From an uncultured archaeon (GTDB lineage Archaea; Aenigmatarchaeota; Aenigmatarchaeia; QMZP01), in assembly GCA_964353635.1 (NCBI GenBank), contig CAYGVS010000002.1:1-63109 (forward strand): 63,109 bases of DNA, read 5' to 3'. Numbering within the stretch: position 1 is the first letter of the stretch; the number at the start of each line of letters is the position of its first letter. Positions 50,213-52,786 of this stretch are shown in pieces. The notes beneath the pieces were generated by a model. The model ran no database searches. It had not been told where the DNA came from and was given only the letters and a program-made list of their open reading frames with translations. Position numbers and translations under genes: made by a program.

Positions 50213-52786
50213 ATGAAATGCCCTTACTGCAGTTCTGAGGACAACAAAGTGGTTGACAAGAGGGAGACTGGAGACCTGATAATAACCCGGAGGAGAAGGG
50301 AGTGCCTCAGCTGCGGGAAGCGCTTCACCACTTATGAGAGGGTCGAGGCTGTGGACCTTGCTGTCGTGAAGAAGGATGGCAGGAGAGAGGCCTATGACAG
50401 GAAGAAGCTACAGAACAGCCTTGTGAAGGCCCTGGAGAAGAGGCCTGTGGCACAGGAACTCATAGAGAAGGCTGTGGACGAGATGGAGGCCGAGCTCAGG
50501 AAGGCCGAGAAGCCAGAGGCGACTACCAAGACCATCGGGGAGATGGCCATGAAGAAGCTCAAGGAGCTGGACAAGGTGGGGTATATACGGTATGCTTCAA
50601 TCTACAAGGACTTCACAGATGTGACGAGCTTCGAGGCCGAGCTCAAGAAGCTGGCTGAGGAGCGGGAGCGGCTGAACGTGAAACCAAAGCTGCACTATGT
50701 CGTAAAGAGGGATGGCACAGCTATCAAGTTTGACAAAGAGAGGATTGTAACTGCGATTTGGAAGGCTGCCGAGAGCGTGGGAGGGACTGACAGGAAGATT
50801 GCCGAGCAGCTGGCTGACAAGGTCGTTGAGGCGCTTGAGGGCAAATTCAATGACAAGAACCCGCCGGGTGTGGAGCAGATACAGGACATAGTGGAGAAGA
50901 TATTGATAGAGAACGGGCATGCAAAAACCGCGAAAGCGTTCATACTTTACAGGGAGCAAAGAGCAAAGATAAGGGAAACCCAATCTACCTTCGTGGACGT
51001 TGAGAAGACCATAGACTCCTACGTGAACCAGTCGGACTGGAGGGTGAGGGAGAACAGCAATGAGCAGTACTCGTTCTCAGGGCTGCTCCTGTATTCCGCA
51101 GGGAAGGTGATGGCTAATTACAACCTTACCCAGATGTACACGTCAGCGATATCCGAGGCGCACAAAAAAGGCTACTTCCACATACATGACCTCTCCCACG
51201 GGGTTATAGGTTATTGTGCCGGCTGGAGCCTGAAGAACCTGCTGGTCAGGGGGTTCGGGGGCGTTCCGAACAAGGTGGACTGCAAGCCTTCCAAGCACCT
51301 GTCCACAGTCGTGCACCAGATGGTTAACTACATAGGCTGCCTGCAGATGGAGTTCGCTGGCGCGCAAGCCTTCTCGAGCGTGGACACGTTCCTGGCTCCG
51401 TTCGTGAAGGCCGAGAAGCTGGATTACAAGAACGTAAAGCAAAACATGCAGCAGCTGGTCTTTTCTTTGAACATCCCATCCAGATGGGGTTCGCAATACC
51501 CATTTTCTAACCTAACGTTCGACTGGACCGTGCCCGAAGACCTGAAGAGCGAGTCAGCCATAGTCGGAGGCAAGCAGCAGGACTTCACGTACGGGGACTG
51601 CCAGAGGGAGATTGACATGGTAAACAAGGCATTCCTTGAGGTGATGATAGAGGGAGACGCTTACGGCAGGGTATTCACATTTCCCATACCTACCTATAAC
51701 GTCACAAAGGATTTTGACTGGGAGAGCGAGAATGCGAAGCTTCTTTTTGAGCTGACTGCCAAATACGGCACCCCATACTTCCAGAACTATGTGGGAAGCA
51801 ACCTGGAGCCGGGGGCTGTGAGGGCGATGTGCTGCAGACTCAATATGGACACAAGGGAACTCATGAACCGGCCGGGCAGCATGTGGGGACCTGGAGACAA
51901 CACTGGCTCCATTGGGGTGGTGACCATTAACATGAACAGGCTCGGATACGAGGCCAAGACAGAGGAGGAGTTCTTTGAGAAGCTCAAGCAGTACATGTTG
52001 CTGTCAAGGGACGCGCTGGAGATAAAGAGGAAGGTCGTTGAGAGGAACCTGCAGAACGGGCTGATGCCATACACCAAGACCTACCTGGGAACCTTTGCGA
52101 ACCATTTCTCGACCATTGGGCTGTGCGGGATGAACGAGGCCTGCATGAACCTGCTCAAGAAGGACATATCCACGCCCGATGGCAAGGCGTTCGTGATAAG
52201 GACCATGAACTTCATGAGGGAGCTGACAAGGCAGTTCCAGATTGAGACAGGCAACCTTTACAACCTGGAGGCCACGCCTGCAGAGTCGGCTGCATACAGG
52301 CTTGCAAGGCTGGACAAGCAGATGTACCCGGACATATACACCTCCGGGGAGAAGGAGCCATATCTCACGAACTCCACGCAGCTGCCTGTTGGATATACGG
52401 ATGATCTGGTCAAGGCGCTGGAACACCAGAATGACATCCAGCCCCTGTACACAGGAGGCACGATTTTCCATACCTTCCTGGGTGAGAGGATGGCTGACGG
52501 GGATGCTGCAAAGGCACTTGTGAAGAAGATAGCCCATAACACGAGGCTGCCCTACTTCTCGATAACACCCACGTTCAGCGTGTGCAAGTCCCACGGCTAC
52601 ATGAAAGGCGAGGTTCAGAAATGCCCCACCTGCGGAGCTGACAACGAGGTTTTCTCCAGGATAGTGGGATACTACAGGCCCGTGAGCAACTGGAACGTCG
52701 GCAAGCAGGAGGAGTTCAAGGACAGGCTTGAGTACGCGGCGAAGAAGGCCCTTGAGAAACCCATAAAGTGCGCTGTTGCTGCCTAA
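50213..52786 (+). CDS. nrdD: NrdR-NrdD fusion: Zn-ribbon/ATP-cone repressor fused to anaerobic (class III) ribonucleoside-triphosphate reductase
   Basis: Residues 1-~150 align end to end with NrdR ([18 protein letters not shown]...[20 protein letters not shown], ATP-cone, ...[13 protein letters not shown]). A second ATP-cone follows, then the NrdD core (MCCRLN) and the C-terminal CPTCG...SRIVGYYRP glycyl-radical motif. Confidence 0.85.
   Translation: [857 protein letters not shown]

Follow-up and report, generated by a model that had tools for sequence, protein, structure and literature searches.

In-frame fusion of a complete NrdR repressor to a class III ribonucleotide reductase in archaea, with a conserved operator at its own promoter

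The window analysed in this study, a stretch of 63,109 nt from an uncultured archaeon of the Aenigmatarchaeota, carries at positions 50213-52786 one gene in which a complete NrdR, the repressor of ribonucleotide reductase (RNR) genes, runs in frame into a complete class III RNR, NrdD. This fusion is real and recurrent, is maintained by selection, and has its own conserved operator. Judging from sequence, we consider it likely that the product is a truly bifunctional chain, in which a complete repressor module is joined to a complete NrdD regulated by an ATP-cone, and that it represses its own operon. A wider proposal seems to be slightly favoured: in many DPANN archaea the RNR holoenzyme may itself be the repressor of its operon, so that dATP-induced oligomerisation would stop both catalysis and transcription, and in one class of the fusions (class B, described below) the cone of the enzyme would replace that of NrdR as the sensor. 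NrdR and the ATP-cone of RNRs are two solutions for the balance of the deoxyribonucleotide (dNTP) pool; they share a domain and have been studied as separate proteins.

The gene and the parts of its product are as follows.

50213..52786, + strand: nrdR-nrdD fusion gene, a single open reading frame (ORF) of 857 aa plus stop, with an ATG start and no internal stop.
50213..50338, + strand: NrdR-type Zn-ribbon, residues 1-42; PF22811 (Zn_ribbon_NrdR), 60.9 bits, gathering cut-off (GA) 27.2.
50360..50620, + strand: NrdR ATP-cone, residues 50-136; PF03477, and TIGR00244 at full length.
50621..50695, + strand: C-terminal helix of NrdR and fusion linker, residues 137-161; helix at 137-153 in the AlphaFold2 (AF2) model.
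50696..50965, + strand: second ATP-cone, the allosteric cone of NrdD itself, residues 162-251; PF03477, and the point where NF006126 starts.
51050..52735, + strand: class III RNR catalytic core, residues 280-841; PF13597 (NRDD), 615 bits, and TIGR02487, 534 bits (cut-off 326).

Domain parsing with hidden Markov models recovered Zn_ribbon_NrdR, two ATP-cones and NRDD in one chain, and the curated Pfam and NCBIfam cut-offs were passed for both families. The first-pass annotation, made from the letters alone, had proposed a full NrdR followed by a second ATP-cone, an NrdD core and a glycyl-radical tail, and this architecture was borne out; the motifs it had quoted (the ribbon, MCCRL, CPTCG and SRIVGYYRP) were all found. 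The NrdR equivalog TIGR00244 (NCBIfam) matches the fusion end to end (1-147 of 147 positions, 175.5 bits, cut-off 124.65), and residues 1-150 align with solved NrdRs at E ~1e-38, the ribbon without a gap. The zinc ligands of the ribbon are C3, C6, C31 and C34, arranged in two CxxC motifs. The NrdD equivalog NF006126 corresponds to residues 162-843 (1052 bits, cut-off 548). The second cone aligns with the cone region of P. copri NrdD (8P23), and the C-terminal ~700 aa align to solved class III RNRs via the CCRL loop, the CPxCG zinc site and RIVGY; the Cys loop, the Zn site and the RIVGY motif all align with T. maritima NrdD (4COI). The catalytic Cys loop M539-C540-C541-R-L and the glycyl-radical motif R816-I-V-G819-Y are invariant or nearly so in an alignment of the homologues (alignment A1). 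The C-terminal Zn site of NrdD is C791-x2-H794...C804-P-x-C807, in which one ligand is His and not Cys. The AF2 model of the fusion has a confidence score (pLDDT) of 76 and flexible hinges at residues 43-47, 151-157 and 255-260, the linker hinge 151-157 being a low-confidence region. A GGAGGT motif resembling a Shine-Dalgarno sequence is located 8 nt 5' of the ATG. In other words, at the sequence level the protein is an NrdR in everything but its free-standing state, and it is a class III NrdD in every respect.

The cryo-EM structure of the S. coelicolor NrdR-DNA complex shows contacts of R12, D15, R17, R26-29 and R37 with the DNA, and D15 and R17 were confirmed by mutagenesis (PMC9110341). 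The equivalents in the fusion are K12, D15, R17, R26-29 and R37, with Lys rather than Arg at position 12. D15, R17, R26-R29, R37 and the four Cys residues are at least 90 % invariant in alignment A1, in class A and class B alike, and K12 is absent from the columns conserved at this level. In the NrdR cone, IRYASIY corresponds to the region of F124, V127 and Y128 in S. coelicolor (RFASVY), so that the outer-site motif is conservatively kept. The ribbon is thus of NrdR type: the generic Zn-ribbon that had been envisaged as the alternative is not what the PF22811 match, the gapless alignment to solved NrdRs and the retained contact residues describe. The dN/dS ratio, computed between the window and its two closest relatives (L081 and L082), is 0.11-0.14 for the ribbon, 0.13-0.14 for the NrdR cone and 0.07 for the enzyme core. 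This means that the NrdR module is under purifying selection of the same order as the enzyme core.

The same architecture was sought in databases and found in more than 100 DPANN clusters; the fusion is common in DPANN archaea and not unique to the window. The ribbon, cone and NRDD families (PF22811, PF03477 and PF13597) occur together in one protein in 111 of the 120 best homologue clusters, and the named ones are Aenigmarchaeota, Woesearchaeota, Nanoarchaeia or Nanobdellota. Candidates beyond the DPANN-type lineages, which came from a GTDB scan (Bathyarchaeia, and metagenome-assembled genomes (MAGs) labelled Atribacteria and Bdellovibrionales), were rejected, their junctions being separate adjacent genes joined by tblastn.

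On the basis of alignment A1 and of family profile scans, three classes of fusion were defined. Class A, to which the window belongs, has 800-887 aa and consists of a complete NrdR, a variable linker of 15-25 aa and a complete cone-bearing NrdD. In class B (735-765 aa), the ribbon is placed directly on the cone of NrdD itself, and the NrdR cone and the linker are precisely missing; TIGR00244 scores only 61-66 bits here, mostly from the ribbon. Class C (P0128/L212, 893 aa) has a complete NrdR (178 bits) on a divergent NrdD that lacks a cone. The class C gene, at 3063-5744 of a contig with 34 % GC, has a 31-bp-spaced box pair on its 5' side and a thioredoxin-like gene and nrdG on its 3' side; it is an independent fusion. 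Both class B and class C keep the ribbon residues as well as the box pairs. In a rough neighbour-joining tree of the NrdD core, which carries no support values, class A, class B and the split or ribbon-less forms are interleaved, and this suggests repeated transitions of the fusion state rather than one event.

The split forms show where the fusion came from. At 14 of 15 junctions read (13 archaeal and one labelled Atribacteria), separate nrdR and nrdD genes are coupled: nrdR encodes 147-164 aa, and its stop codon overlaps the nrdD start (ATGA) or precedes it by a few nt. The 15th locus (L019) has a long gap. Coupled genes with upstream boxes were seen in Bathyarchaeia (L003, L004, L034, L038, L039, L044, L055, L056, L074 and L076) and in Woesearchaeota (L001 and L002). 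Such a translationally coupled operon is the evident precursor of the fusion, because a one-base change fuses the genes. It should be mentioned that in the Bathyarchaeia at least, a large class of archaea, NrdR is a common protein; this disagrees with recent papers, which describe it as rare or absent in Archaea.

Two further observations concern unusual members of the family. In L091, an ORF of 62 aa with an NRDD Pfam match (6499-6687) directly follows the 831-aa class A fusion gene. Possible explanations for it are a frameshift, a spare-part protein or a C-terminal glycyl-radical piece that has become detached. Many fusion homologues are as long as 1,050-1,470 aa (among them P0009, P0010, P0014, P0038, P0057, P0062, P0080, P0085, P0114 and P0118). 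Most of these carry inteins (PF14890, PF14528) in the NrdD part, and P0009 and P0010 are without an intein Pfam match. Inteins in RNRs are already known; in these proteins they occur alongside the fused NrdR.

The promoter region of the fusion gene contains the following elements.

49901..49916, + strand: NrdR box 1, CTACAAGATATTGTGT, which matches the consensus ACACWATATATWGTGT at 13 of 16 positions.
49933..49948, + strand: NrdR box 2, GCACAATTAGTTGTGT, with 12 of 16 consensus matches, 32 bp from box 1.
49869..49877, + strand: predicted TATA-like element, GCTTATAAA, ~25-30 nt 5' of box 1.

The boxes that had been noticed earlier at 49901-49948 are real: the core ACAANNNNTTGTGT is found in the 63-kb window only there, at 49903-49916 and 49935-49948 (expected number 0.02). 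The spacing of the two boxes is a whole number of helix turns, as is usual for NrdR boxes at RNR promoters. The pair scores 25, and none of 235 other 520-nt windows from the same sequence scores above 21. The orthologous boxes of L081 and L082 have 13-15 consensus matches of 16 and the same spacing of 32 bp; box 1 matches at 15/16 positions in L081 and at 13/16 in L082, and the L081 pair as a whole at 15/16 and 14/16. Pairs 31-32 bp apart are also present in L086, L087 and L088 (class B), L091 (class A) and L212 (class C), and in L085 the pair precedes a DUF3467 gene that heads the operon. Over the 11 promoters of true fusions, the pair scores range from 23 to 29, and the spacing is 31-32 bp in 10 of them; the best pair with this spacing in 1,955 background 520-nt windows scores 21.

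The TATA-like element is kept in L082, and its equivalent in L081 is CATTTAAATA (alignment A2). It may serve as the archaeal TATA-box. As it lies ~25-30 nt before box 1, the box pair would cover the predicted transcription start. An operator over the transcription start is the arrangement typical of archaeal repressors. In the bacterial mode of NrdR, the boxes overlap the promoter or the start site (PMC9110341).

The only target visible in the examined sequence is the operon of the fusion gene itself. In the class B Woesearchaeota L086 (1373-3645) and L087 (1559-3753), genes of a class II RNR (Ribonuc_red_lgN/lgC) and of a cob(I)alamin adenosyltransferase are located directly 5' of the ribbon-NrdD gene, and a small glutaredoxin/thioredoxin-like gene is located between the latter and nrdG. 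No boxes were found ahead of this adjoining class II RNR operon in L086 and L087, so that there is no evidence for trans-regulation of the second RNR. In the window, two genes diverge from the promoter of the fusion: one at 48760-49794 (-) for a NUDIX-domain protein of 344 aa, and one at 47933-48748 (-) for a protein of the inositol-monophosphatase family. The Nudix gene was considered as a co-regulated target and was rejected, as this neighbour is not conserved in L081 or L082. The divergent genes, absent at both of these loci, are probably outside the NrdR regulon.

These features suggest a self-repressing enzyme, and the following course of events, based on the known behaviour of NrdR and of cone-bearing NrdDs, can be proposed. 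The coupled nrdR-nrdD operon would have become a fusion once the overlap of stop and start codon was lost. A rise of dATP relative to ATP would load the NrdR cone with dATP plus ATP, and the ribbons would become exposed in an oligomer capable of DNA binding. It is known that NrdD is dimeric and that DNA-bound NrdR is tetrameric, with the ribbons paired on each box and the cones paired together. The ribbons of four chains, most simply of two NrdD dimers, could therefore occupy the two boxes with their spacing of 32 bp; the hinges in the AF2 model would permit such rearrangements. Occupancy of the boxes over the predicted start would block archaeal transcription initiation of the nrdRD-propeller-nrdG operon. 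At the same time, dATP bound to the second cone would inhibit the enzyme allosterically, as is the case for other NrdDs with a cone. Feedback on activity and feedback on synthesis would thus be united in one chain; in other words, the enzyme would be its own repressor.

We infer each of the functional terms of this scheme, namely that the fused protein binds DNA, that nucleotides control the binding, that the oligomer has the stated stoichiometry and that repression follows. Class B makes the best case for a ribbon that functions on the enzyme itself, because this class retains the ribbon residues and the operator though the NrdR cone is gone. The first-pass annotation had compared the chain with a trigger enzyme. 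This idea gains from the boxes kept at the fusion promoters, including those of class B, and from the purifying selection on the module; its part on binding and repression stays presumptive. If the own operon is the sole target, the fusion would be free of cost, and this could explain its recurrence in the small genomes of DPANN archaea.

Several points weigh against such self-repression. DNA binding, repression and catalysis are deduced for every fusion member from what its sequence retains. In the 63 kb of genome visible here, there is no second nrdR, other ribbon gene, other ATP-cone protein or class II RNR; a stand-alone NrdR elsewhere in the genome could bind the boxes. The canonical NrdR tetramer intertwines ribbons and cones, and the fusion hangs an NrdD dimer of 700-aa chains on every C-terminus. 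In addition, the usual amount of NrdD in a cell far exceeds that of a transcription factor, and one must ask what keeps the repression from being permanent. Among the fusion promoters, that of L089 is without a pair at 31-32 bp (the best pair is 21 bp apart), and that of L090 has one strong and one weak box. Finally, the boxes of the window lie at -312 and -280 from the ATG (265-312 nt 5'), behind a long structured leader, and the promoter geometry is predicted. They are unusually far from the ATG because the conserved leader and a window-specific segment of ~150 nt intervene.

An unlikely alternative is that the NrdR module has lost DNA binding and now serves the enzyme as an additional module for allostery or oligomerisation; the boxes would then be relics or the sites of a separate NrdR. 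RNRs with tandem ATP-cones are known, some class I RNRs having additional N-terminal cones, and the hinges of the model would let the module dock on the enzyme. The limited view of the genome leaves room for the separate NrdR, and the neighbouring class II RNR operon of L086 and L087, which has no boxes, fits a module without a wider regulon. However, D15, R17, R26-29 and R37 are nearly invariant over fusions of 62-88 % identity, including class B; the box spacing of 31-32 bp in 10 of 11 fusion promoters is far above background; and the ribbon has a dN/dS of ~0.1. Allostery alone would not keep the DNA-contact arginines together with an operator.

That the single ORF yields two proteins, through proteolysis of the linker or through internal initiation near the junction, so as to free NrdR, NrdD or both, appears improbable. 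The low predicted order of residues 151-157 would suit cleavage, and GGAGCGG...GTG just ahead of the second cone (GTG at 50678) would suit initiation. However, the class A homologues share neither a start codon nor a Met at the junction, and their linkers vary in sequence and length; nor can internal initiation give a free NrdR, as there is no stop. In class B, moreover, the ribbon sits on the only cone of the enzyme. Separation would destroy one of the functions there, yet the operator is retained.

The fusion is not an assembly artefact. The exact protein of the window (P0271) has a counterpart in another assembly, P0001, which differs from it by 2 aa and is encoded on an independent contig of 6,242 nt. 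The junction (residues 137-161) shows 88-92 % protein identity to L081 and L082 with a proportion of synonymous differences (pS) of ~0.5 and a dN/dS of 0.08-0.15; it therefore evolves as coding sequence. The stop codon or frameshift that might have separated nrdR from nrdD is absent from the sequence: the ORF is open, and the fusion recurs in more than 100 clusters and in a second assembly. A missed stop or 1-nt indel between adjacent nrdR and nrdD genes is conceivable because an ATGA overlap occurs in many related archaea, where a single-base error would fuse the genes, but such an error is extremely improbable here, since the junction of the window is a 25-codon helix and linker without ATGA overlap and with many synonymous differences from L081 and L082, the 2-aa variant lies on its independent contig, and in-frame fusions with linkers of different length are found in over 100 clusters, which come from NCBI, JGI, ENA and Logan assemblies.

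When compared with stand-alone NrdR (S. coelicolor, PDB 7P37/7P3F/7P3Q; the further solved entries 9FVR, 9FXK, 9FZF and 9GEX were also aligned), the fusion has the Zn-ribbon, ATP-cone and C-terminal helix end to end, the same DNA-contact residues apart from K in place of R12, and the same operator, in which 16-bp palindromes are paired at a spacing of 31-32 bp and overlap the promoter or the start of transcription. Stand-alone NrdR is a free protein of 140-220 aa, whereas the fusion runs without a stop into NrdD up to residue 857. Its host is archaeal with a promoter of TATA/TFB type, its boxes were found only at its own promoter in the examined sequence, and it has class B relatives without the NrdR cone.

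We know of no DNA-binding element on the characterised NrdDs. The NrdD of P. copri (8P23 and others; Bimai et al. 2024, PMC11226230) shares with the fusion the cone, the glycyl-radical core, the Zn site, RIVGY and the presence of NrdG in the operon; the fusion differs in having an extra NrdR module of 160 aa ahead of the cone. The coupled nrdR-nrdD operons (Bathyarchaeia, some Woesearchaeota and Atribacteria-labelled MAGs) share with the fusion its two modules, their order and the upstream box pairs, at 50-72 % identity, but consist of two ORFs where the window has one.

PutA, BirA and NadR are trigger enzymes, in which an enzyme with a DNA-binding domain represses the genes of its own pathway on a metabolite cue. 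The fusion resembles them in principle, at the level of architecture; the folds and origins are unrelated. In contrast to these proteins, its regulator is a dedicated repressor that is also free in many organisms, and ATP and dATP bind to the cones and not to the active site. Other RNR fusions, such as the eukaryotic NrdD-NrdG (Lundin et al. 2010, PMC3019208), glutaredoxin-NrdB and ATP-cone-NrdB, likewise join operon neighbours or mobile domains, but they add an activase, a reductant or a cone, and none adds a transcription factor.

No description of an NrdR-NrdD fusion was found in the open-access full-text literature, although absence there is no proof that it is unpublished. The automatic annotation of JGI labels some members [quoted passage not shown]. 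As far as can be told, the architecture is visible in databases and apparently uncharacterised.

The fusion offers a natural system for asking whether allosteric and transcriptional feedback share one nucleotide-induced oligomerisation, and the case is strongest for class B. If the proposal is true for class B, an allosteric RNR cone and an NrdR cone would be able to replace each other functionally as drivers of DNA binding. The split operon, the class A fusion and the deletion of the cone form an evolutionary series with evidence of repeated transitions. Regulation of the NrdR type is also extended into Archaea, which raises the question of how a repressor of bacterial type acts on promoters dependent on TBP and TFB. 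In addition, NrdR is notoriously unstable on purification, and a naturally fused, possibly stabilised form could aid structural work.

Downstream of box 1, the leader of the window can be divided into two segments.

49921..50002, + strand: conserved 5' leader element, present in the window, in L081 (7858-7938) and in L082 (7859-7938).
~50003..50195, + strand: window-specific extra leader segment, ~150 nt more than in L081 and L082, with approximate boundaries (alignment A2).

For the conserved element, a Y-shaped fold is predicted, in which the box-2 hairpin and another hairpin are closed off by an outer stem (GUGGGGA/UCCCCAC), with CUCCCCG and a U-tract on the 3' side. The palindrome of box 2 is extended to a hairpin of 9-11 bp, in which the window has a G-U pair where L081 and L082 have A-U. 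Of the 27 pairs in the fold predicted from the alignment, most do not vary or change on one side only, with G-U as the alternative pair, and the three sequences contain almost no covariation. The whole leader is predicted to be far more structured than shuffled controls (z = -6.5). The conserved element could perhaps be an RNA element resembling an attenuator or terminator, or else a DNA feature of the operator. A scan of metagenome DNA for the conserved leader pattern TTGTGTTNNNGTGGGGA gave chance matches only, none of them with a box or a ribbon ORF. The extra segment contains a perfect 19-bp inverted repeat (arms 50083-50101 and 50117-50135), which is present as a single copy in the window, and the segment is possibly either a small inserted element or a regulatory hairpin specific to this lineage. 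The Rfam matches on the 19-bp hairpin were sub-threshold and miRNA-like, and were treated as noise.

On the 3' side, the fusion gene is followed by two genes.

52768..54123, + strand: PQQ-like beta-propeller ORF of ~430-450 aa, inserted ahead of nrdG, with a stop codon that overlaps the start of nrdG.
54120..54815, + strand: nrdG, the radical-SAM activase of NrdD; TIGR02495 (NrdG2), 213 bits (cut-off 131), and PF04055.

The true start of the propeller ORF may be an ATG near 52834. An orthologous propeller of 430 aa occupies the same place in L081 (10626-11918), which is the one relative examined that shares it; the propeller is not present in L082, L085, L088-L091 and L212. In the relatives without the propeller, nrdG is located directly 3' of the fusion gene or is separated from it by a small redoxin gene or ORF.

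The genomic context of the fusion is archaeal, as seen from the 3' end of an archaeal large subunit (LSU, 23S) rRNA at positions 1-439 of the window and from the closest named homologue of the fusion, which belongs to Ca. Aenigmarchaeota (88 % identity). A tRNA was called by Rfam over 127 nt at 8603-8729 and was missed by ARAGORN; it probably contains an intron.

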